Virus record (IMG/VR): IMGVR_UViG_3300016649_000355
Reading direction: 5' to 3' (one strand)
Origin: a virus
Lineage: Duplodnaviria > Caudoviricetes
Length of the DNA: 64,000 nucleotides
Position 1 is the stretch's first letter. Each line of letters begins with the position of its first letter. The position numbers and the translations under genes were made by a program. Below are positions 3,879-17,376 of the stretch, in pieces. The notes beneath the pieces were generated by a model. That model did not search any database, was not told where the DNA came from, and saw nothing but the letters and a program-made list of their open reading frames with translations.

Positions 3879-5669
3879 CTATTGTACCCAACAGTCGCAA
3901 TTGCAACGAATAACTTCGTCAATCGCTTCTTGTACTGAATAAATTGAAGGTGTGAGTGTTCCTGAGACTAGGGGGCTATTAAGATTTGGTGGCAATAAAT
4001 TTGAATATGGAGATCCAGAAAATGATTTTACAATGCTTCCACCCGCTGTATACACGGCGGGTGAACCATCCTGTGAGGGGACGCCCGGACCTGCGGGCTG
4101 CACGGGTCCAGTTAAAACAGCTTGAGCCGGGCCGAGAGGTTGTCCGTACAGCACAGCATTTAATATTGTGCCTAAAACTGTATTATCTGTTGTTGTGCCG
4201 CCTTGTCCATTAAAATTTGCATTTGTAATTCGTAAAATATTTGTAGCTGGATCTAAAAAACCAAAAGTTTCAGGAAGAACTGCTTTGGCATCGACTGAGC
4301 AATCACTGACACCTAGATTACTGGGATTGGTAAATTTTTGTTGTGAGTTAGGTACATCAATACCGTTACGGGCTCCGGGAATAGACCCATTTGCCAATAA
4401 TACTGATGCTAGTGAAGGATCTAGTGTGTCTGGTATGTTATTATCCTGATCAATTCCAAGCTCTTGTAATCTTAGTGCATTCCTAGACTCACGCATTAAT
4501 CCAATGATAGATTGCGCCCCGGGATTACAAACATCTGTTATAGCTTCCATCGTTTGTGCTGCACCATGAGGACTAGTATCCTGTGCCATGACAGGCAATG
4601 TATCTACAAAAACTTCTTGTGAAGTTGGATACAGATTAACGAATCTATCTCTGGGGGTAGGTACAGGAGGAATAGCGTTATATCTTGTTCTTTGTTCTAT
4701 TGTAAGCTGAGTACCTGCCATATCATAGTTGATGTTTAATGCCTTCGCTACATTCGGTTTACTATTGAAAATATTTTGAATTTCAGTATTGGAGTCGTCA
4801 ATATAAGATTGCACAATAGAACTCATGGTAGCTGACCATGCGCTAGCGTTAGTTACAGTATATGCAGTGTTTGTTAATCCTGTATATCCGTAGGCTGTCG
4901 GAGGTGATTGTATTCTCAAAGTAAATCCTGGGTCAGGTGGAGTTGGACTTCCTCCCGAACCGTTAGGTTGTTCTGAGGTTGCTCCTAATATAAGATTCGT
5001 AACACAACCAAATGTTCCAGGAACATTTGTACTATTAGTATCAATTACGACTGTAACGGTTGGTATAGTTCCGCCTGAGGTAGTGCCCACAATTTGTGCT
5101 GTAGGAGTGGGCGCTTCTCCTCTAGAGTATCCTTTTCCTTCAGTGGTGAGAGTAACTCCAGTAATAGTATAGTAGTAATTATAATTTCCACTGAGTGGCG
5201 GACTTTCTTCTGCTCTTGTGGTATACTGCACTGTTCCTGCTGAATTATTCCATATCACTGCTAGATAGAGTTGTTTATATATATTTTCTAAGGTAGGTGT
5301 ACTAAGGTCTTGTATACCTTTATAAATATCTTGCCAATGATATGGCAATCCACTCATGCAACCAAAAAAGTCGCTAAATGTATATGTCCCGTAAGGACCA
5401 GTACCTAAAGCAGTAAGATTTAACCCTTCATTGGCTAATGTTGTATCTACAGGTACATTAGTTCCATTTACTGAATTTAATCCTTTGGTGGTCTCCATAG
5501 AATTTACGATTTGAGCAAATTTTTCTATGGGAATAGTTGTTATGTTTCGTATCTGCTGCATTGCCGCAGAAAATGCGCCGGAAGTAATCGCTATATCTTC
5601 TGGAACTATATTTGTGAGATACGACCCGAACCCCGATCTAGCTACTTGTAAATTTAAATATTCTGCCAT
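3879..5669 (-). CDS. Hypothetical protein, possibly virion-associated
   Basis: 596-aa ORF, Thr/Gly/Pro-rich, downstream of PAAR; no family recognised. Confidence 0.65.
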   Translation of the reverse strand: MAEYLNLQVARSGFGSYLTNIVPEDIAITSGAFSAAMQQIRNITTIPIEKFAQIVNSMETTKGLNSVNGTNVPVDTTLANEGLNLTALGTGPYGTYTFSDFFGCMSGLPYHWQDIYKGIQDLSTPTLENIYKQLYLAVIWNNSAGTVQYTTRAEESPPLSGNYNYYYTITGVTLTTEGKGYSRGEAPTPTAQIVGTTSGGTIPTVTVVIDTNSTNVPGTFGCVTNLILGATSEQPNGSGGSPTPPDPGFTLRIQSPPTAYGYTGLTNTAYTVTNASAWSATMSSIVQSYIDDSNTEIQNIFNSKPNVAKALNINYDMAGTQLTIEQRTRYNAIPPVPTPRDRFVNLYPTSQEVFVDTLPVMAQDTSPHGAAQTMEAITDVCNPGAQSIIGLMRESRNALRLQELGIDQDNNIPDTLDPSLASVLLANGSIPGARNGIDVPNSQQKFTNPSNLGVSDCSVDAKAVLPETFGFLDPATNILRITNANFNGQGGTTTDNTVLGTILNAVLYGQPLGPAQAVLTGPVQPAGPGVPSQDGSPAVYTAGGSIVKSFSGSPYSNLLPPNLNSPLVSGTLTPSIYSVQEAIDEVIRCNCDCWVQ

Positions 5670-7780: not shown

Positions 7781-8011
7781 TTATGCTGCTTTTGATAAAA
7801 GTTGTTTTAATTCAGTAAATCCACCCACATAACTTTCATCTAAAAATATTTGTGGTACGGTTCGTGCAGTAGGGACAGCCTCAAGCAATTCTTCTTTAGA
7901 CCATCCGTCTCCTATTTTTCTTTCTTCGAACTCTATTCCCTTTGATTCTAAAAGTGATCTTGCTTGATCACAGTAAGAACAATTATACTTACTCCACATG
8001 ATTGCTTTCAT
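7781..8011 (-). CDS. Glutaredoxin (Grx3-like), RNR electron donor
   Basis: CSYC active site, TVPQIF and YVGGF motifs; adjacent to nrdB. Confidence 0.93.
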   Translation of the reverse strand: MKAIMWSKYNCSYCDQARSLLESKGIEFEERKIGDGWSKEELLEAVPTARTVPQIFLDESYVGGFTELKQLLSKAA

Positions 8012-8022
8012 AGATTTTCTCC

Positions 8023-9123
8023 TTATAATTGTGGTAATTCTTCATATTCTATACTATCACTCATGACACCGATCACATAGTTAGTGCTTTCATTTTCTTG
8101 CAATGCTGTCTGCTTTTTGCTCGTATCACTATGTTTGTTAAACCAGGGGATAGGAGTAGTCTTTGGAGCATTATTCCAGTATTTGATTCCAATATCTTTC
8201 AACGCATTATTTGCTGTATAGTCAACAAAATCTTTGAGAATATTAGCATTCAATCCGATAACAGGACCTTTCTTGAACAAGTATTCTGCCCAAGCTTTTT
8301 CTTCTTGTATCACATCCCTATAAATCTGCAAGACTTCTTCCTGACACTGTTGTGCTATTTTTGCAAATCTACTGTCGTCTTTGATCACTTGATTAATAAG
8401 ATAGGCTGTCCAACCCTTGTGTAATAGTTCGTCTTGTAGGATCAGGCTGATAATATTGCCATTACCGATGAAGATTTTATTCTCTACCATTGCTAGACTT
8501 GTAGCGAACGATACCATGAAGCGAAATGCTTCTAGAGCATATGATGCATGGAGCGCGAGATAAATTGCTTTGATGTGTTTTTCTTCATCGATACTTTCGC
8601 CGATTTCAATGAGGCAATTGATCTTGTGCAGGTCATCGTAATATTTTCCAATACTACTTGCCATGTCAATGATCTCTTTAGTGTCATGAATGGTATTAAA
8701 CACATCTTTAGGCACATTGTATATGTTGCGGATGATGTGGCTGTAGCTGCGGCTATGTATATTTGTCTCAAAGAATGTCCAGTTGTATACTAATGCTTCT
8801 AATTCAGGTAAGCTGATGACGGGTGTAAAGATTTGACTAGGACCTCGACCCTGAAGACTATCTAATGCTGTCTGTCTTAATAGATTGCTCGTAAATATGT
8901 GTTTGACTGCCTCGCTGGAATTCTTGAAATCTTGAGCATCTTTCGTCAAACTGATCTCTTCAGGAACCCAGAAAAAACCCCTCGCAGTTTTTTCAAAATC
9001 GGCGATCTTGTTATATTTTACTTCCTCGAACCGTTGGATAGTTACAGGTCCCTCTGGATCGAGAAACATCTTGCGATTTAAGTAATCGGTTTTAGTTGAT
9101 AGATTATATTGTTGTTTGCTCAT
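8023..9123 (-). CDS. nrdB: Ribonucleotide reductase class Ia beta subunit
   Basis: FWVPEEISL, LLRQTALDSLQGR, ETNIHSRSYSHI, EAFRFMVSFA and DELLH di-iron motifs; C-terminal QENESTNY. Confidence 0.97.
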   Translation of the reverse strand: MSKQQYNLSTKTDYLNRKMFLDPEGPVTIQRFEEVKYNKIADFEKTARGFFWVPEEISLTKDAQDFKNSSEAVKHIFTSNLLRQTALDSLQGRGPSQIFTPVISLPELEALVYNWTFFETNIHSRSYSHIIRNIYNVPKDVFNTIHDTKEIIDMASSIGKYYDDLHKINCLIEIGESIDEEKHIKAIYLALHASYALEAFRFMVSFATSLAMVENKIFIGNGNIISLILQDELLHKGWTAYLINQVIKDDSRFAKIAQQCQEEVLQIYRDVIQEEKAWAEYLFKKGPVIGLNANILKDFVDYTANNALKDIGIKYWNNAPKTTPIPWFNKHSDTSKKQTALQENESTNYVIGVMSDSIEYEELPQL

Positions 9124-9132
9124 GATATTCCT

Positions 9133-10140
9133 TTATAATTTGCAGGACTCGCATTCTGCATCCTCTAATTCCTCAGAGGGTAAATCTATTAATTCTTCCT
9201 CCGCCTTTGATCCTTGTTTGTTGATCAGGCTATAATAAAAAGTTTTCAAGCCCCAATAATGTGCCTGCATCAAATTCTTAGCGATCAATGTAGTTGGGAC
9301 TTTGCGATCTACGAAATGTGCAGGATTATAGAAAGTATTCGTGCTGATACTTTGATCAACATATGCCGCTAGTATTGCCGCAGTCTTTAGATACCCTGCA
9401 CAATCTTTCTGATCCCACATCAATTGATACTTGTTCTTTAATTTATGATATTCAGGTACTACTTGTGTGAACGATCCTGCTTTGCTCTCTTTAGTGCTGA
9501 TCAATGACATGGGTAATTCTATCCCGTTAGTTGAATTGATCACTACAGAACTTGATTCTACAGGGGCGATTGCCATCAAAGTAGCATTGCGAACTCCATA
9601 TTGTTTCATATTCTCACGCAAGGGTTCCCAATCTAATTCGGGGGCGAAGCTTGCCAACTCGTTCGCGCCTTTAGCCCTTCTTTCCCAAGGAAATATTCCT
9701 TTGCCGTAATATGTTTTGTCGCTATGTAAGCATTTACCTCTTTCTTTAGCAAGCTCAACTGTAGCTTCTGTTAGATAATATGCTTGATGTTCCATCCAGG
9801 TTTTAACTTCTTGCAATGCATCACTGTCACCGTACTTCAATCCACGCTTTGCGTGCCAATATGCTAGATTGGTAACGCCTATGCCTAAGGGGGAAATTTC
9901 GTCGTTACTTAATTTGCTCTGAATACTCAAGAAATCCTGATAATCAAGTATGTTACACAAGCTACGGTGAAGTATGCGGCAAGCTCTGCGCATGTCTTCT
10001 GGATTTCTGAAAGAGCCCCAGTTGATACTTCCAAGTGTACATAAGGCCACTCTGCCCTCTGCTTCGTCTATCTCATAATATTCGTATTCATCATCCAATT
10101 CTTCCGGAAGACATTCTATTTCTTCATATAATTCGTTCAT
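9133..10140 (-). CDS. nrdA: Ribonucleotide reductase class Ia alpha subunit, C-terminal fragment (NrdA-b)
   Basis: GRVALCTLGSINW (E. coli C462 equivalent), LGIGVTNLA, AIAPVESSS, KTFYY (Y730/731) and C-terminal CESCKL. It has its own AAGGA RBS and a novel acidic N-terminal head. Confidence 0.93.
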   Translation of the reverse strand: MNELYEEIECLPEELDDEYEYYEIDEAEGRVALCTLGSINWGSFRNPEDMRRACRILHRSLCNILDYQDFLSIQSKLSNDEISPLGIGVTNLAYWHAKRGLKYGDSDALQEVKTWMEHQAYYLTEATVELAKERGKCLHSDKTYYGKGIFPWERRAKGANELASFAPELDWEPLRENMKQYGVRNATLMAIAPVESSSVVINSTNGIELPMSLISTKESKAGSFTQVVPEYHKLKNKYQLMWDQKDCAGYLKTAAILAAYVDQSISTNTFYNPAHFVDRKVPTTLIAKNLMQAHYWGLKTFYYSLINKQGSKAEEELIDLPSEELEDAECESCKL

Positions 10141-10370
10141 ATAAATCCTTTTTGAATCTGTTCTCGTTTTTCCCGATAATCTTGATATAGTTCAATCTCT
10201 TTCATGTTTATTACATATGAAGTGCCGCCTGTCATGTGATTCTTCAACATTCCTTCACTTAGCCACTGAAGTCTCTGCTTGAATTCTTCAAGGTTAGCAC
10301 ACTTCATATATTCATATGAATTCATTAGTTGTTTTCTAAGTGCGGCAAGTGCTTTAGTTTTATCACTCAT
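10137..10370 (-). CDS. Hypothetical protein inside the nrdA interruption
   Basis: 77-aa ORF with ATGA overlaps to both the endonuclease and nrdA-b. Confidence 0.65.
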   Translation of the reverse strand: MSDKTKALAALRKQLMNSYEYMKCANLEEFKQRLQWLSEGMLKNHMTGGTSYVINMKEIELYQDYREKREQIQKGFI

Positions 10371-11134
10371 ATCCTCTTTCCATATTTTGTAATTAGGTAA
10401 TAACTTTTACCTGTCGCTTCTTTTGCTTCTGCAATACTAGCATAAACAACACCATCATATTCAATTTTTACCGCTTCATGATGATTGCTACCTTTGATTG
10501 CTAACTCTTTGAGTTGTTTACTTCTTTCTTCTTTAGTCATAAACACATATTCTTTGTGTTCGTATTCAACATCTCTTTTATTGGTTAATTTTTTACATTT
10601 ATAACCTTTATACATACTCTTTCTACCACGGGCAACTGCACTCATAGCGCTGGCATTTAGTTTATGTTGACGACAAAATTCAAGCATATTTGTGATAGTT
10701 AAAACTTCTTGCTCAGGAGTAATAACTTCCCATTCATCTGCTATCTTTAGTTTTTGCTCGTCTTTCATCGCTTTGCCTTTGTTGTTTATAACTAAATCAC
10801 CCGAAGCAAATTTCTTTTTCTTAGTAGCAGATATTTTAGGACCATTACCGCAATCGCCTCCGCCGGCAGTAGGAGAAATATTGTAGTACATTGGACTTCT
10901 AGCACAATTCAATGTATCTAAATAATATTGCTCTCTTACCAAAATATCTTCTTCCTTTTCAATATATTCTACAATAGTTCTTTCAAAATTTTCAATACCA
11001 TATTTGTTTTTGGCATTTTCAAATCTTCTACCACTTCCAGTATAACCATCATTGATTGTACCTTTATGTGATCCCAGATATTTCATTCCATCTAATTTAT
11101 TTGTCCATTCGTATATAAAACCTGAATAATTCAT
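10367..11134 (-). CDS. Free-standing GIY-YIG (Seg-like) homing endonuclease
   Basis: GFIYEWTNKLDGMKYLGSHKG...GYTGSG...KYGIENFERTIVE N-terminal nuclease domain, followed by basic NUMOD-like DNA-binding segments; AGGAGG RBS. Confidence 0.9.
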   Translation of the reverse strand: MNYSGFIYEWTNKLDGMKYLGSHKGTINDGYTGSGRRFENAKNKYGIENFERTIVEYIEKEEDILVREQYYLDTLNCARSPMYYNISPTAGGGDCGNGPKISATKKKKFASGDLVINNKGKAMKDEQKLKIADEWEVITPEQEVLTITNMLEFCRQHKLNASAMSAVARGRKSMYKGYKCKKLTNKRDVEYEHKEYVFMTKEERSKQLKELAIKGSNHHEAVKIEYDGVVYASIAEAKEATGKSYYLITKYGKRI

Positions 11135-11135
11135 T

Positions 11136-11182
11136 TGTGCCTCCTGTACATTTATTTATCATTACTCTGTACTTTAGGCACA
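11136..11182 (-). promoter_or_regulatory. RBS-sequestering hairpin with an embedded late promoter upstream of the GIY-YIG gene
   Basis: Minus strand: TGTGCCT-aaa-GTACA-gagtaatgaTAAATAaa-TGTAC-agg-AGGCACA-aATG. The stem pairs with part of AGGAGG, and TAAATA (11153-11158) sits in the loop. Confidence 0.8.
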
Positions 11183-11187
11183 TTTAA

Positions 11188-12660
11188 CTATTTTATTCGC
11201 CTGATTTTTACTATATCGTTGGATTTGTTCTTCATAAACTCATCAACATTGGATTTTTTAACTCTAATCAACTTGCGTTCTGGATCCATTCTCTTGAATG
11301 GTTTGGTGGGCAATAGTATTTCACAGCATAGGTTACTTTGATATATGGTATGGTAGTCTGGATCAAATGGGCCTTGGTTCATGACATTATCGATAAACAC
11401 CAGATATATACGACCAGTATCTGTGCGTTCTTTCAAAATGCCGCCTTTGAAGACTTCTTCAGCACTCATGGTCTTCTTGCGCAATCCGTTCTGTTTTTCA
11501 TACTTTACATAGAGTTCTTCGAACAATCCTGTATCCTTATAAAACGCTTCGTATAGATCAGGTACTTCATTAGGGTCGAAGAAAGTGATATTTTCTTTGT
11601 TCTTGAATCTGCGCCAGAAGAACGCACTAAGAACAACACCGTAATCCATGTGCCTTACCCTTGTTTCTTCAGTTCCTTGATTATTCTTGAGTACGATCAG
11701 ATCATCAAATTGATAGTGCCATATAGGATAGAATATAGTGGCACTGGCGTTTCTAATTCCGCCTTGGCTGCAACTTCTAAGATCTCCAAACCATTTCTTT
11801 AAGAAGGGAATCATACCAGTGTGCATGATCTCACCGCCGCGAATAGGACTACCCAGTGGGCGTAGTCTGCCAATTTCTAAACCAATGCCTGCGCGTTTGC
11901 TGGCATATTTGGCCATCATTTCGCCAGATGCAAAGATACTATCCAAATCGTCATCACTGCGGATAAGAACACAACTACTAAACTGTTTAGTTGGCGTTCC
12001 GAGACCAGCAAGAACAGGAGTAGCGAGAGTAAAAAGACCGTCACTGGCTGCATTGTAATATTCCTTTATATAACGCATACGAGTCGAATTGGGCTCTTCT
12101 CGATGAAACACTGTGGCTGCTGCCACCATGTATCTAACCTGGGGAGTTTCGTAGATTTCTTTTGTCGCCCTATTTTTAACAAGATATTTCTCTATCAATT
12201 GCTCGATTGCGGCATAACTGTATGCTTCATCCTTAGAATGGTCGATGATCTCATCCATTTTATTCCATTCTTCTTCAGTATACCATTCAAGTAATTCATG
12301 TGTATAAAGACCTTTACCTACATTTTTCTTTACGATCTCATAAAGTTTAGGTGGGTTATAACCGCCATAAACATCTTTACGCAACATGCTCACACGCTGT
12401 TTTCCTGCCACAAACTGATAATTAGTGTGACCAACATCAGGATTCGATTCTACATCGATCAAATCCACGACTGCTCTCAAAGTGATATCATCGATCTCTC
12501 TTGTTGTGATGCCATCATAAAATTGTGGTTGAGCTTTGATCTCAATCATCGACTGACTAACATCTGCTATGCCCTGACATATCTTTGCTACTTGTGCTTG
12601 CCATTTTTCTAGAGTCAATGGCTCTTTTTTCCCCGATCTTTTGGTTACATTTATGATCAT
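11188..12660 (-). CDS. nrdA: Ribonucleotide reductase class Ia alpha subunit, N-terminal fragment (NrdA-a) with ATP cone
   Basis: N-terminal ATP cone (VTKRSG..EPL), TPVLAGLGTPTKQFSSCVLI (C225 equivalent), SQGGIRNA and QSNLCCEILLPTKP (N437/C439/E441). It ends in a basic non-NrdA tail. Confidence 0.95.
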   Translation of the reverse strand: MIINVTKRSGKKEPLTLEKWQAQVAKICQGIADVSQSMIEIKAQPQFYDGITTREIDDITLRAVVDLIDVESNPDVGHTNYQFVAGKQRVSMLRKDVYGGYNPPKLYEIVKKNVGKGLYTHELLEWYTEEEWNKMDEIIDHSKDEAYSYAAIEQLIEKYLVKNRATKEIYETPQVRYMVAAATVFHREEPNSTRMRYIKEYYNAASDGLFTLATPVLAGLGTPTKQFSSCVLIRSDDDLDSIFASGEMMAKYASKRAGIGLEIGRLRPLGSPIRGGEIMHTGMIPFLKKWFGDLRSCSQGGIRNASATIFYPIWHYQFDDLIVLKNNQGTEETRVRHMDYGVVLSAFFWRRFKNKENITFFDPNEVPDLYEAFYKDTGLFEELYVKYEKQNGLRKKTMSAEEVFKGGILKERTDTGRIYLVFIDNVMNQGPFDPDYHTIYQSNLCCEILLPTKPFKRMDPERKLIRVKKSNVDEFMKNKSNDIVKIRRIK

Positions 12661-13103
12661 AACTTACCCGTTTTTTCTATTATTTGTCGTATGTTTATAT
12701 TTTTTTTGATTGTGAATTGTGATAATGAGTTATTTAATACCGTGTCTGGCCAGTAATTCAGTATATATTTTGCGTTATCGACCAAGACTAATATCACATC
12801 TTCGCTATTATCATCTGTGGCCTCTACTAATTCAATATTTTTGGCACCCAGTAATAACAATGTATATATCATTCCCAATCCACGGGCATATGAGCAATAA
12901 AGATTTTCGTTCAATAGTTGCCACGGGTCAGGCCATTCATCCATAAAATCTGGGTGCAAGTAGTGATTTTGTATTGGAACTTTCTGCCAAAATTCATCGA
13001 CAGCGATGCATTGATCTTGAAGAGATTGAGTTTTTAGATTGTTTCTTAGTTCAGACCAATATGAAAGGCGATTTTCGTAATCTAATTGAAATATATTCAT
13101 CAC
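12657..13103 (-). CDS. Hypothetical phage protein
   Basis: 148-aa ORF (GTG at 13103 or ATG at 13100) with an ATGA overlap to nrdA-a and a TAAGTA box at 13107-13112. Confidence 0.7.
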   Translation of the reverse strand: MMNIFQLDYENRLSYWSELRNNLKTQSLQDQCIAVDEFWQKVPIQNHYLHPDFMDEWPDPWQLLNENLYCSYARGLGMIYTLLLLGAKNIELVEATDDNSEDVILVLVDNAKYILNYWPDTVLNNSLSQFTIKKNINIRQIIEKTGKL

Positions 13104-13139: not shown

Positions 13140-13163
13140 AAAAGGGGGCTTAAGCCCCCTTTT
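13140..13163 (-). terminator. Rho-independent terminator after the fibre gene array
   Basis: GGGGGC-TTAA-GCCCCC stem flanked by A and T tracts, immediately after the stop of 13165..17376. Confidence 0.85.
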
Positions 13164-13164
13164 C

Positions 13165-16100
13165 TTAGAATCTACCAATTACTACTTCAATCACGCCCTT
13201 TTCACCATTGAAGTTCTCTAATGATTTTCCAATGATCGTACCTGCCTTAGCCTCGTTATTAGCCTTAGCGTAACCATTTAGAGATGATACCATTAGATCA
13301 CCTTTTTCTACTGGACCTATAACTTTGACTGGTACGCGACCTTGTAGTGCTAAGATCGCAACATGATCACCTGCACAGCCTGCATTCATGACATATGCGG
13401 GGTCTGTAGATACTACCCCTGCCACCCTTGTAGAATCAAATGTATTAGCTTCCGTGACTTCAAATTCGCCACCAAACACCAATACTGTACCTGGCTCATA
13501 GTCTTTATCAGCTACATATTTTTCTGCTAAGTCAGCGTATGTAGCATTCCATCTAGAACCTGCGCTCAATGTCCAGTTACCTGTTACTGTACCTGCTGTT
13601 GTGTTAGCGCCGGTTGTTAGTGTATTACCAAGAAGTGTCGCTCCCGCACCACCTATCGTTCCAGTTGATGTTACATTACCAGCAGAAACATTACCTGTAA
13701 CTGAAAGTGATGTCAATGTACCAACTGATGTGATGTTTGGTTGTGCGTTTGTTGTTACAGTGCCAGCTGTAGTTGCTGCACCGCTCAGTGTGGCAGTAAT
13801 GATATTAGCATCAAAGCTTCCGTTTGCATCGCGGGCTACAACTTTACTGGCAGTGTTAGTTGTAGTTGCATCAACTGTGGCTGTTACTGCGGTACCACCA
13901 TTGAAACTTGTACCAGTTAGATATGAACCTAATGTCAATGTTTGTGTGGTGTTTGCAGTAATAGTTGATGAGGCGCCTAATGTTACTGTTGTGCCGTTAA
14001 CGGTTGCTGATGCATTTGCAAGTCTTGCTTGATCAAGAGTTCCACTTGAGATATTGCTTGCATTTAGTGCTGTCAATCCACTACCATTACCAGTAAAGAC
14101 ACCTGTGTTAGCAGTGATGTTAGCCGCAGTGATATTTCCGTTAACACTTAAACCAGTTAATGTACCTACTGAAGTTATATTTGGCTGTGCGGCTGTTGTT
14201 AGTGTACCTGTCAATAAATTAGCGCCAATTGTACCTGAGTTAGCATAGACATTACCTGATGTAGTATTGCCTGTAACAGCTAATGATCCTAATGTTCCCA
14301 CACTTGTTAAACTTGATGTAACGATACCTGAATTTAATGCTGTGCCTGTCAAGTTAGCAGCATTCGCAGTTATAACTGTATTTGCTGCCGCTGTCAGTTG
14401 TCCCTGTCCGTTAACGGTGAATGTAGCTACACTGTCGCCATTACCATAGCTACCCGCAGTTACAGTAGTATTGCTTATGCTGAATTGAGTACCAGTTAAT
14501 GTTAAACCTGTACCTGCTGTAAATGCACCTGAACCACTGAATTGAGTCCAGTTAACATTGCTTGTACCAACTGTTGTGACTGGATCAGTCAATACCCAAC
14601 CAGTGTTATCATACAATGTACCAGCAGTTATGAATGTGAAGTCGCCACCGGCCATTTCGACTGGAGTATCGAAATCAGCGGAACGAGTTAAAACTGTGCT
14701 GCTTGTACGATCATAGATACCATTATGTGCAGCATTTGCCTCGTTCTTTACAAGGATACGCATACCATCTGATAGTGTGACACCATCGATAGTTGTGTAT
14801 GAGCCTGTTGTTGTCAATGTCGCGCCGACACCGCTTGTACCATTATTATATGTTACTGTACCGCCTGAAATAGTTGCTAGTGTGCCTGTTGTAGCAGCAT
14901 TACAACTATCGTGAGTATGTAGACCCTGAGCAACATCATCAACATATTGTTTTGTTGCTGCGTCAGTAGCTGCTACAGGAGTAGCTACATTGCTAATTAT
15001 AAAGTTTCCAACATTAACTGTACCAGTACCTGTAGGCACTAAATTGATGTTTTGATTTGCACCTGCAGCAGTAATTGTTACGCTCGTGGTTCTACCCACA
15101 ATCAAATCTGTTACAACATTAGCATTTGAAGATATATTACCTGTGACACTTAATGCACCACCTGTAGAAATATTACCAGCACTTGCGTTACCTGTGACAC
15201 TTAATGCACCACCTGTACTGATATTACCAGCACTTGCGTTACCTGTGACACTTAATGCACCACCTGTAGAAATATTGCCACCTGAAACATTACCTACTGC
15301 AGCCATAGAACCGCCAGTAGCTATGTTTGCTGCTGCTAAATTACCTGTAACTGTGAGACTTGATAATGACCCAACGCTTGTAATATTTGGCTGTGCATTA
15401 GTTGTTAGTGTACCACCTAGTGTGGTAGCTACTACTCCGGTCGCTCCTAAATTACCCACATTAGCATTACCGGTGACACTTAATGCACCACCTGTAGAAA
15501 TATTACCAGCACTTGCGTTACCTGTGACGGTTAATGATGTTAGTGTGCCAGTGCTTGTGATATTAGGTTGTGCATTTGTTGTTAATGTACCGGTCAATAA
15601 ATTAGCACCCACTGTGCCTGAGTTAGCATAGACATTACCTGCTATTACATTGGCCGTCACGCTTAATTCGCCACCGGTTGATAAATTACCTGCACTTGCA
15701 TTACCTGTCACAGTAAGACTTGTTAATGTGCCAACACTTGTTATATTTGGTTGCGCATTTGTTGTTACAGTGCCGGCTGTAGTTGCTGCACCACTCAATG
15801 CACCCACGAATGTTGTAGCATATAAGGCACCATTAGATGCATTGGCAATAAACGCAGTGTTGCCCAATGGCTGAACATTTCCCGATGTTCCACTTATAAG
15901 AGCAATATTGAAATTACCGTTTTGTGCAGAGCCTGCACCGACATAATCTGAAACATTCGCATACGCTACATTCAAATTAGCAACACGGGTAGTGCTTGTC
16001 ACTGTTAATGGAGCAGTACCTGTTGCGATATTACTTGTTAATGTGCTTGCCGCCACCGCACCTGCTGTGCTAATATTACCAGCACTTGCGTTACCTGTGA

Positions 16101-17376
16101 CACTTAATGCACCACCTGTAGAAATATTACCAGCACTTGCGTTACCTGTGACACTTAATGCACCACCTGTAGAAATATTACCAGCACTTGCGTTACCTGT
16201 GACACTTAATGTGCCAGACATTGTAACACCTTCATTACCATCATTGGTGCTTATTGCAAAAATGTTTGCTTTACCCGTAGAGTTGAATGCAAACGCTGAA
16301 TTACTATTATCAATTAAATCCCATAATGTGTCATTTTCGATAGAAGCAACATTACCTGCTTGAATGTAGAATGCATAATTACCTAAACCTGAACCTGCTG
16401 CATTTCCTAGAACACCCACATTGAAACCACCTGCGTGTGTCATTGTTGCATAACCACGAACACCTACTGCTGCACCGGTGTCATTTGTATTTGTTACATA
16501 AGCACCACCTTGGACACCCGTCGCTTTTGTAGCGCCGTTCGCTCTGGCTTCTCCTAGAACACCAATTCCCCATGTACTAGTATTGCCTGAATCTGCAACA
16601 GCCTCACCAACTAAACCAATGTTTTCAAAGTGTGATTGACCTGAATTATCCTGAGATACAATTACTGTAGCATTGGGAAAATCACTTGCATTAGCGGTAT
16701 TTCCTACCCTTAGCCCAGTCAATAATCCTACGCTTGTTACATTTGGCTGTGCGTTTGTTGTTAAAGCTCCTGCTAATAAACTTGCACCAATTGTACCCGA
16801 ATTAGCATAGATATTTGCTGCTGTCGCATTACCTGTGACTGCAAGATTAGCGAGTGTACCGACACTTGTAATATTTGGTTGAGCATTTGTTGTTAATGTG
16901 CCCGCTAAAAAGTTCGCTGTTGCTAGATTACCAAGATTAGCATTATTAAAGTTAGCATTTCCATTTACTGTCAATAAATTAGTAGTTTTGTTAAAGGTAA
17001 AATTTGCTTCTCCACCAAAATCTCCCGCATCATTAAACTGAACATATGTGTTGCTGCCACCAGGAGTACCGCCTAGATCCCAAGCGGTGCCGTTCGCATA
17101 TAATAAATTGTCTGTTTTTATATTTGTTGCCCCGACATTACCATTAACAGTTAAAACTGCTGTAGTTTTATTAAAGGTTAAGTTAGCATTTGCTCCGAAC
17201 GACCCTGCATCATTGAAATATACTTCAGTATTAACACCAGCGGCTACCGGGAAAACAGCAACATTTCCGTCTGAACTCTTAACTGACAAGTCATCATTTG
17301 AATTCAAAAAAACAGTACCTTTTCCGGCGGGCGGAATCGGTACAGAATTTGGGTTATTTTGTTTTAAAATCAGCAT
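13165..17376 (-). CDS. Long tail-fibre-like repeat protein with a C-terminal chaperone-like domain
   Basis: 1403 aa with TTNAQPNITSVGTL repeats, a DAATKQYVD block and C-terminal YADLAEKY...YEPGTVLVFGG...GRVPVKVIG, typical of phage fibre ends. Confidence 0.8.
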   Translation of the reverse strand: MLILKQNNPNSVPIPPAGKGTVFLNSNDDLSVKSSDGNVAVFPVAAGVNTEVYFNDAGSFGANANLTFNKTTAVLTVNGNVGATNIKTDNLLYANGTAWDLGGTPGGSNTYVQFNDAGDFGGEANFTFNKTTNLLTVNGNANFNNANLGNLATANFLAGTLTTNAQPNITSVGTLANLAVTGNATAANIYANSGTIGASLLAGALTTNAQPNVTSVGLLTGLRVGNTANASDFPNATVIVSQDNSGQSHFENIGLVGEAVADSGNTSTWGIGVLGEARANGATKATGVQGGAYVTNTNDTGAAVGVRGYATMTHAGGFNVGVLGNAAGSGLGNYAFYIQAGNVASIENDTLWDLIDNSNSAFAFNSTGKANIFAISTNDGNEGVTMSGTLSVTGNASAGNISTGGALSVTGNASAGNISTGGALSVTGNASAGNISTAGAVAASTLTSNIATGTAPLTVTSTTRVANLNVAYANVSDYVGAGSAQNGNFNIALISGTSGNVQPLGNTAFIANASNGALYATTFVGALSGAATTAGTVTTNAQPNITSVGTLTSLTVTGNASAGNLSTGGELSVTANVIAGNVYANSGTVGANLLTGTLTTNAQPNITSTGTLTSLTVTGNASAGNISTGGALSVTGNANVGNLGATGVVATTLGGTLTTNAQPNITSVGSLSSLTVTGNLAAANIATGGSMAAVGNVSGGNISTGGALSVTGNASAGNISTGGALSVTGNASAGNISTGGALSVTGNISSNANVVTDLIVGRTTSVTITAAGANQNINLVPTGTGTVNVGNFIISNVATPVAATDAATKQYVDDVAQGLHTHDSCNAATTGTLATISGGTVTYNNGTSGVGATLTTTGSYTTIDGVTLSDGMRILVKNEANAAHNGIYDRTSSTVLTRSADFDTPVEMAGGDFTFITAGTLYDNTGWVLTDPVTTVGTSNVNWTQFSGSGAFTAGTGLTLTGTQFSISNTTVTAGSYGNGDSVATFTVNGQGQLTAAANTVITANAANLTGTALNSGIVTSSLTSVGTLGSLAVTGNTTSGNVYANSGTIGANLLTGTLTTAAQPNITSVGTLTGLSVNGNITAANITANTGVFTGNGSGLTALNASNISSGTLDQARLANASATVNGTTVTLGASSTITANTTQTLTLGSYLTGTSFNGGTAVTATVDATTTNTASKVVARDANGSFDANIITATLSGAATTAGTVTTNAQPNITSVGTLTSLSVTGNVSAGNVTSTGTIGGAGATLLGNTLTTGANTTAGTVTGNWTLSAGSRWNATYADLAEKYVADKDYEPGTVLVFGGEFEVTEANTFDSTRVAGVVSTDPAYVMNAGCAGDHVAILALQGRVPVKVIGPVEKGDLMVSSLNGYAKANNEAKAGTIIGKSLENFNGEKGVIEVVIGRF
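15140..15292 (-). repeat. Tandem 51-nt coding repeat (NASAGNISTGGALSVTG) x3
   Basis: The unit cctgtgacacttaatgcaccacctgtagaaatattaccagcacttgcgtta starts at 15140, 15191 and 15242, with further copies near 15470 and at 16094-16211. Confidence 0.9.

Follow-up and report, generated by a model that had tools for sequence, protein, structure and literature searches.

A ribonucleotide reductase (RNR) of the genes-in-pieces kind has been described in Aeromonas phage Aeh1, where the gene of the large subunit is arranged as nrdA-a, then mobE, then nrdA-b (Friedrich et al. 2007, cited through PMC3045599). The break lies between the cysteines corresponding to C439 and C462; NrdA-a carries a tail with an isoelectric point (pI) of 10.4, NrdA-b carries one with a pI of 3.8, and the DNA encoding the tails is AT-rich (PMC3045599). 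The two pieces were purified as separate proteins retaining their tails in the mature form, and deletion of the tails decreases activity approximately 2000-fold; the tails are dispensable for the pairing of NrdA-a with NrdA-b, being required for dimerisation of the heterodimer and for activity (PMC3045599). Crona et al. 2010 reported no database match for these tails and treated them as a one-off (PMC3045599). Here we analyse a split nrdA in the IMG/VR virus record IMGVR_UViG_3300016649_000355 (Duplodnaviria; Caudoviricetes), of which a stretch of 64,000 nt was considered (hereafter, the window). With a probability of about 85%, we interpret this locus as an Aeh1-type genes-in-pieces nrdA, in which a mobile cassette occupies the loop that separates the C439 equivalent from that of C462 and the two resulting chains assemble with each other.

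The source of the window is a giant freshwater phage. No match to the locus was found among cultured phages by megablast, so this phage group is uncultured, and the relatives used for comparison are viral contigs (L numbers) and database proteins (P numbers). All features of the nrd locus discussed below lie on the minus strand, in the order 148-aa open reading frame (ORF), nrdA-a, GIY-YIG endonuclease gene, 77-aa ORF (ORF77), nrdA-b, nrdB and glutaredoxin gene. The gene nrdA-a (11188-12660) encodes 490 aa, and its body (11284..12660) comprises the ATP-cone, the all-alpha domain and the first barrel half up to and including the C439-equivalent loop. The gene nrdA-b (9133-10140; 335 aa) has a body (9133..10068) containing the second half of the barrel with C34, the C462 equivalent, as well as Y302/Y303 and the C-terminal CxxC.

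The break therefore falls between the C439 and C462 equivalents and shares out the active-site residues over two ORFs, as a preliminary description of this DNA had stated and as the ORF coordinates and the division of the barrel in Pfam confirm. Positions 1–222 of the Pfam model Ribonuc_red_lgC correspond to NrdA-a residues 228–455, and positions 222–431 to NrdA-b from residue 28; since the model divides at position 222, the break is clean and all core residues are kept. The claim that no catalytic residue is lost also holds, because C230, N443, C445 and E447 of NrdA-a and C34, Y302, Y303, C330 and C333 of NrdA-b are invariant alignment columns among relatives. In related viral contigs with an intact nrdA, the N-terminal part of the gene shares 88–91% identity with the nrdA-a body, and the NrdA body is nearest to the intact NrdA of Xanthomonas and Ralstonia phages. 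Every junction is spanned by contigs from independent 2024 freshwater metagenomes, none of which shows a joint across the gap, so the arrangement did not arise in assembly.

At the break, the two pieces carry segments of opposite charge. The basic C-terminal tail of NrdA-a (11188..11283; P460–K490 plus the stop codon) belongs to the cassette and not to native NrdA, departing from the intact allele immediately past the D459 codon. It contains 11 K/R and 4 D/E residues (net charge +7), exactly as first counted. The acidic N-terminal head of NrdA-b (10069..10140; M1–I24), another cassette part, is preceded by an AAAGGA Shine–Dalgarno sequence. The head had been described as a 28-aa peptide with 14 D/E and no K/R (net −14); the peptide and the counts are exact, while its final 4–5 residues (DEAE) align with the native loop in intact relatives, so only about 24 aa are foreign. 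The GC content is 31% in the tail, 29% in the head and 29–34% over the cassette, compared with 41% in the nrdA body.

Among ten split viral contigs, codon differences in the tail and head are mostly synonymous. The ratios of non-synonymous to synonymous substitution rates (dN/dS), which are rough as synonymous sites are near saturation, come to 0.11 in the tail and to 0.03 in the head, compared with 0.06 and 0.12 in the two flanking bodies. Judged by this codon pattern, the tails are translated and under purifying selection. A length-restricted protein search with NrdA-b retrieved 1797 proteins, and the same acidic head is present on 113 of the best 120 NrdA-b-sized database proteins, in which it was checked. 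NrdA-b-sized proteins starting with MNQGPFDP were considered as another break and rejected, being gene calls truncated at contig ends. The charged junction tails are very probably functional.

The tail is similar to its Aeh1 counterpart. Its core, KLIRVKKSNVDEF, matches Aeh1 MLFKVKKSEVDKF at 8 of 13 positions, and in a composition-preserving test with 20,000 shuffles the local alignment score of 49 for the two tails (shuffles, 22 ± 4.4) was equalled by only 3 of the 20,000; for the tail of the related contig L093, none of the 20,000 shuffles scored as well against the Aeh1 tail. A third version of the cassette is carried by approximately 35 T4-like coliphages, such as Escherichia phage F2 (MN864145). 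A multiple alignment of the three lineages reveals a common tail motif L-I-K-I-K-K-S-D-V-x-K-F and a common head motif Y-E-x-[IV] ... D-[DE]-E-Y; the homology of the window head to that of Aeh1 is suggested by this alignment. The charge polarity is likewise common to all three, with net charges of tail and head of +7/−14 in the window, +6/−10 in Aeh1 and +4/−9 in F2. The intact NrdA of Klebsiella phage Marfa, which appeared in tblastn as a tail carrier, was rejected, as its translation shows the normal short loop and the alignment extension is spurious.

The gap between the two nrdA pieces contains the GIY-YIG endonuclease gene and ORF77, with only 53 nt of non-coding sequence; the preliminary description had recognised the former gene and overlooked the latter. 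The endonuclease (10367-11134; 255 aa) has an N-terminal GIY-YIG nuclease domain (10793..11134), matched by PF01541 at residues 5–76 with 25.0 bits (cut-off 22.6) and by the homing endonuclease family phrog_314 (E = 9e-32). Its C-terminal domain (10367..10792), with a match to phrog_2081, is of the MobE type and presumed to bind DNA. By sequence, the protein thus appears to have the two parts of a GIY-YIG homing endonuclease, a catalytic domain and a separate DNA-binding region. Residues 115–250 are 34% identical to residues 107–229 of Aeh1 MobE (E = 6e-21) and 35% identical to residues 113–224 of the coliphage F2 HNH endonuclease (E = 5e-20). With a MobE-like C-terminal half and a GIY-YIG N-terminal domain, the endonuclease is therefore a chimera. 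The gap does not hold a mobE gene of the HNH type, and because the nuclease domain is GIY-YIG and only the C-terminal half is MobE-like, we classify the window cassette as a variant of the Aeh1 type.

An RNA hairpin (11125..11192) spans the nrdA-a stop codon, the endonuclease Shine–Dalgarno sequence and the bases just past the ATG. Its folding energy is −18.3 kcal/mol (z = −4.7), and none of 200 shuffles folds equally well. The hairpin loop contains the late-promoter-like sequence GATAAATA (11153-11160), matching the T4 late-promoter box in 7 of 8 positions. The combination of a hairpin over the ribosome-binding site (RBS) with a late promoter is known for I-TevI of T4 and for Aeh1 mobE (PMC2988022), and by analogy the two elements may regulate translation of the endonuclease in the window. 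Shine–Dalgarno-like sequences precede each of the endonuclease gene, ORF77 and nrdA-b, while a scan for sigma-70 promoters gave sites no more numerous than in shuffled sequence.

ORF77 (10137..10370) is a small conserved cargo gene that forms ATGA overlaps with both the endonuclease gene and nrdA-b. It has 53 homologous clusters, and comparison with Pfam and PHROG matched it to no known family. Where nrdA is intact (L160, L161 and L162, at about 5001-5228), the ORF77 homologue lies between nrdA and nrdB and is coupled by overlaps. In the window it has moved into the nrdA gap as an ORF-sized module, at 81% nucleotide identity, with its last codons remade so as to overlap the nrdA-b start. Another small ORF, encoding a hydrophobic protein of 55 aa and distinct from ORF77, follows the same endonuclease in L006 (4795-4998) and L164 (4331-4498). 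Short contigs 90–99% similar to the endonuclease gene (10488-10687 and 10889-11140), with almost no nrdA flanks, were found in the wastewater runs X20 and X21, hinting that the endonuclease is also present in contexts other than nrdA. Two wastewater runs bear the label RNA-Seq and probably represent DNA; short pieces of the endonuclease gene are all they yielded, which has no bearing on expression or splicing, and no RNA run containing the locus was found.

Among relatives at 81–85% identity, nrdA is mostly intact. Thirteen viral contigs with the same tails as the window were compared as split alleles, and their gaps differ in content. The window-type endonuclease, 82–96% identical, fills the gap in L006, L093, L094 and L164; a 243-aa relative, 38% identical to the window protein, fills it in L012, L038 and L092; a GIY-YIG protein with an unrelated C-terminus, accompanied by cargo ORFs, is found in L007, L010 and L166. 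Only cargo ORFs are present in the gap of L008, and in L009 and L013 the gap is empty, with 7 nt and about 45 nt, respectively. The same tails thus flank three endonuclease types, cargo alone, or nothing, and the gap behaves as an exchangeable slot. Two alleles of the tails themselves can be distinguished. In the second one (L013, L164) the native loop after LPT is replaced as well, which is also the case in Aeh1, and this allele is found together with the window-type endonuclease.

L087, whose nrdA is split, and L079, in which it is intact, make up a filled/empty pair whose flanks are nearly identical. Their identity ends on the left at the D459 codon and resumes on the right at about the D25–G29 codons of NrdA-b, followed past the right junction by a patch of about 40 nt in which differences are mostly synonymous. 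When the split state is mapped onto a 108-row tree of the NrdA-b body, at least 8 changes are needed, at least 5 of them forced by well-supported branches.

Further combinations of breaks were observed among the relatives. In L013 (300-2700) nrdA is present in three pieces, with an atypical split intein that has a very short N-piece (after LRSC/C) and an additional 381-aa ORF upstream; the tail-type split with the empty gap comes after this upstream split intein. P0200, P0201 and P0180 are middle pieces of multi-piece NrdA from other NrdA lineages, each with a C-intein half at its start and a basic tail of the same family at its end.

The cassettes of the window and Aeh1 have in common the loop, the basic C-terminal tail on NrdA-a, the acidic N-terminal head on NrdA-b, a homologous NrdA-a tail, AT-rich DNA, an endonuclease gene in the gap, the C-terminal domain of the endonuclease and a hairpin over its RBS. 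They differ in the nuclease, which is HNH in Aeh1 and GIY-YIG here, in the additional ORF77 and in the NrdA lineage; unlike that of Aeh1, the window cassette is seen to be polymorphic in a natural population, including empty and cargo-only gaps. The F2 cassette has the same split site, tail motif, head motif (Y-E...D-D-E-Y) and a homologous C-terminal half of the endonuclease, and differs in having an HNH nuclease, no cargo gene and an nrdA of the Tequatrovirus lineage. Comparably, one free-standing endonuclease is replaced by another at a given T4-type locus, SegH and Hef taking the place of mobC and mobE (Sandegren et al. 2005, cited through PMC10448857), and related phages there also house endonucleases of different families in one slot. 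In contrast, the slot of the window lies within a split essential gene, and one of its occupants keeps the MobE-type C-terminal domain while the nuclease domain is exchanged.

The preliminary description had regarded the locus as an independent, GIY-YIG-driven case, which would mean a convergent split with charged tails that arose anew, and had proposed an alignment with Aeh1 as a check. The GIY-YIG nuclease domain, as opposed to the HNH domain of MobE, speaks for this view, and so does the NrdA body, whose nearest counterparts are the unsplit proteins of Xanthomonas and Ralstonia phages and which is only 40% identical to Aeh1 over NrdA-b. However, the alignment returns the same insertion loop and a homologous NrdA-a tail; the tail is homologous to that of F2 as well, the endonuclease shares its C-terminal domain with MobE, the charge polarity is as in Aeh1, and the tails are unchanged whichever gene fills the gap. 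We therefore consider convergence very unlikely: on the alignments, the window cassette is a relative of the Aeh1 cassette and not an independent invention. A GIY-YIG-driven split is not supported either, as these tails are also found around other endonucleases and around gaps that lack one, and the opposite charges are not a new insight, since Crona et al. 2010 had already given pI values of 10.4 and 3.8 for the same split in Aeh1 (PMC3045599). The anatomy of the cassette, its conservation, its homology to the Aeh1 cassette and its polymorphism among relatives are all shown by the sequence comparisons.

An Aeh1-type split presupposes that the pieces remain separate, and two explanations would have them joined. 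According to the first, the insert is a group I intron with an endonuclease ORF; what looks like tail and head would be translation running on into its ends, and the mRNA, once spliced, would yield one continuous NrdA. The layout resembles that of the T4 td and nrdB introns (PMC3653736), with the endonuclease ORF flanked by about 140 and about 320 nt. Nevertheless, an Rfam scan of 8900-12800 produced no match at E ≤ 1, while the endonuclease-bearing T4 nrdB intron, used as a control, was detected with E = 6.5e-6; the Aeh1 and F2 cassettes, like the window, give no match. In addition, the interval is nearly all coding, with 53 nt of intergenic sequence, the tail and head peptides are kept through synonymous change, and L009 and L013 have both tails with only 7–45 nt between them, which is too short for an intron core. 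Together with the purification of the homologous Aeh1 pieces as separate tailed proteins (PMC3045599), these observations make the intron extremely improbable.

The second explanation is an active split intein, with the tails as intein halves and protein trans-splicing joining NrdA-a to NrdA-b. A true split intein does exist in close relatives (L066, L081, L110 and P0110), 20 residues upstream at NLC/C, and in metagenomic nrdA there are known split inteins whose halves enclose an endonuclease gene, as in the fractured genes of Dassa et al. 2009 (PMC2677866), where an RNR gene also forms two ORFs with an endonuclease gene between them. The ends of such fractured-gene inteins were likewise proposed there to attract each other electrostatically. 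In L066 (4300-5200) no gene separates the halves of the split intein, and in L110 about 1 kb lies between them. Unlike the split inteins of Dassa et al., the window tails lack the residues needed for splicing and fall well short of the required length: P/E, and not C/S, stands at the start of the tail, the end of the head has no H-N followed by C/S/T, the intein signature including Hint blocks A, B, F and G is not found, and the lengths are 30 and 24–28 aa as opposed to 105 and 34 aa in the neighbouring real split intein. The pieces would therefore stay separate, as in Aeh1, whose tails persist in the mature proteins, and we give trans-splicing practically no credence.

It could also be supposed that nrdA is dead and the phage depends on the host RNR. 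Nothing beyond the interruption itself favours this; against it, the halves, tails and catalytic residues are under purifying selection in more than 100 split alleles, and both nrdB and the glutaredoxin gene are retained. A dead gene is thus barely credible. The small-subunit gene nrdB (8023..9123), assigned by Pfam, lies directly downstream of nrdA-b, and the NrdC-like glutaredoxin gene (7781..8011; Pfam) encodes the probable reductant of the phage RNR.

A structural model of the complex of NrdA-a with NrdA-b reached an ipSAE (interaction prediction score from aligned errors) of 0.92, as compared with 0.03 for the best of three controls; among solved complexes 58 of 80 attain the mark applied to this score, as do 2 of 110 mismatched pairs. 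The runs have 91% of contacts in common, and the partner pLDDT (predicted local distance difference test) is 88. The modelled interface includes NrdA-a residues 445–469 and 478–490 and NrdA-b residues 4–11 and 18–40, so that nearly the whole tail and nearly the whole head are predicted to be in confident contact with the other chain. In the AlphaFold2 monomer of NrdA-b the head (residues 1–36) has a pLDDT of about 30 and is predicted to be disordered alone; the monomer of NrdA-a is a poor model (mean pLDDT 46) whose helical tail call is not usable.

The description of the locus as a genes-in-pieces nrdA with charged junction tails agrees with the lack of a detectable intron or intein, with purifying selection and with the placement of the tails at the modelled interface. 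Several points weigh against the interpretation. The pass of the complex model largely reflects likeness to solved intact NrdA, as a pass is to be expected for any two halves of a known fold, and carries little weight alone; moreover, the model places tail and head in contact with the partner chain, which is not a prediction of specific tail–head pairing or of secondary structure such as the beta-sheet zipper put forward in the preliminary description. Taken alone, the heads do not reach significance against the Aeh1 head in the shuffle test, owing to their acidic composition. The hairpin is without covariation support because the only other aligned copy, the spacer of L087, is identical to the window except for the stop codon. 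Finally, assembly, enzyme activity, homing and regulation are matters that we infer, tail-mediated assembly being proposed on account of the Aeh1 biochemistry and the structural model.

With these reservations, the Aeh1-type interpretation suggests the following mechanism. The mobile cassette consists of the basic tail, a stop codon, the gap with the endonuclease gene and cargo, a start codon and the acidic head. Translation very probably gives two separate chains, which would join without a covalent bond into a large subunit with a shared active site. The tails belong to the cassette, and a working enzyme would need both of them; by analogy with Aeh1, they probably pack on each other and on the dimer interface, letting the a/b heterodimers dimerise. 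The endonuclease presumably cleaves the intact nrdA of co-infecting relatives, which would copy the entire cassette in. The hairpin over the RBS probably holds translation of the endonuclease back until the late promoter borne in its loop fires.

Two leads to the origin of the cassette emerged when the final 62 residues of NrdA-a were used in a profile search. One, compatible with the proposed mechanism and also raised in the discussion of Crona et al. (PMC3045599), is that a split intein formerly seated in the loop has shrunk to the present tails, which no longer splice. P0203, an NrdA-a-type fragment, is broken in the same loop and has a tail, lacking the catalytic Cys1, with clear homology to the final 40 residues of the N-intein in L066 (score 65 vs 24.8 ± 4.6; 0 of 20,000 shuffles as good), and its DPTKLVKI resembles DPTRKLIRV in the L007 tail. 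However, tails and heads of the window type, Aeh1 and F2 gave pairwise p ≥ 0.05 against the co-resident split intein, a profile of four intein segments gave p ≥ 0.05 for all 12 tails, P0203 compared with the window and L007 tails gave p of about 0.05–0.1, and the cassette site has no +1 nucleophile. These comparisons lend a dead-intein origin no support for the window cassette, and we regard it as unlikely.

The other lead is that tail and head are halves of an older in-frame insertion in the NrdA loop that an endonuclease later cut, or that the contiguous form is itself a re-fusion. P0194, a contiguous NrdA of 828 aa verified on a 9.1-kb contig where it adjoins nrdB (L170, 296-2782), has a loop insertion of about 50 aa resembling the window tail (equalled by 108 of 20,000 shuffles) and the Aeh1 tail (by 376 of 20,000). 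Against this, the form is known from a single contig, its head-like half is not significantly similar, and P0194 is compatible with either direction, fusion or fission. Through the intein, neither of the two leads links up significantly with the window-type tails. This origin, too, appears doubtful to us.

A broader hypothesis, for and against which we see about equal grounds, is that the arrangement of basic tail, gap and acidic head represents a self-standing mobile module, a non-splicing counterpart of inteins, which has spread into at least three divergent phage nrdA lineages and outlasts the loss of its endonuclease, with an exchangeable slot in which HNH was swapped for GIY-YIG once on the MobE-type domain. 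The lineages in which the module is found are Aeh1, T4-like coliphages and giant freshwater T4-related phages. The P0194 insertion and the dead N-intein relic of P0203 may show its source.

Upstream of nrdA-a, the 148-aa ORF (12657-13103, minus strand) belongs to no known family and has a 4-nt overlap with the nrdA-a start; ORFs resembling it in size and position precede nrdA in L160, L164 and L166. A strong terminator-like hairpin of 10 pairs followed by a T run (13140-13163, minus strand) is located upstream of the nrd operon and just downstream of a repeat-rich fibre gene encoding 1403 aa (13165-17376).

The tails at the nrdA break form a conserved family under selection; over 100 environmental alleles carry them, as do three phage lineages, whatever fills the gap between them. 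This supports the view that it is the tails, and not the endonuclease, that make the splitting of an active site tolerable. To this the window adds a swap of the nuclease domain on a MobE-type C-terminal domain, the cargo gene ORF77 and population evidence of an exchangeable slot. The suggestion that the tails could serve as a split-protein assembly tag follows from the Aeh1 work and is not new, although the natural variation described here could guide the design of such tags. Filled and empty sites, alleles with empty gaps, two tail alleles and one C-terminal domain combined with differing nuclease domains constitute natural material that could be used to probe the function of the tails and the swapping of domains and targets by free-standing endonucleases.

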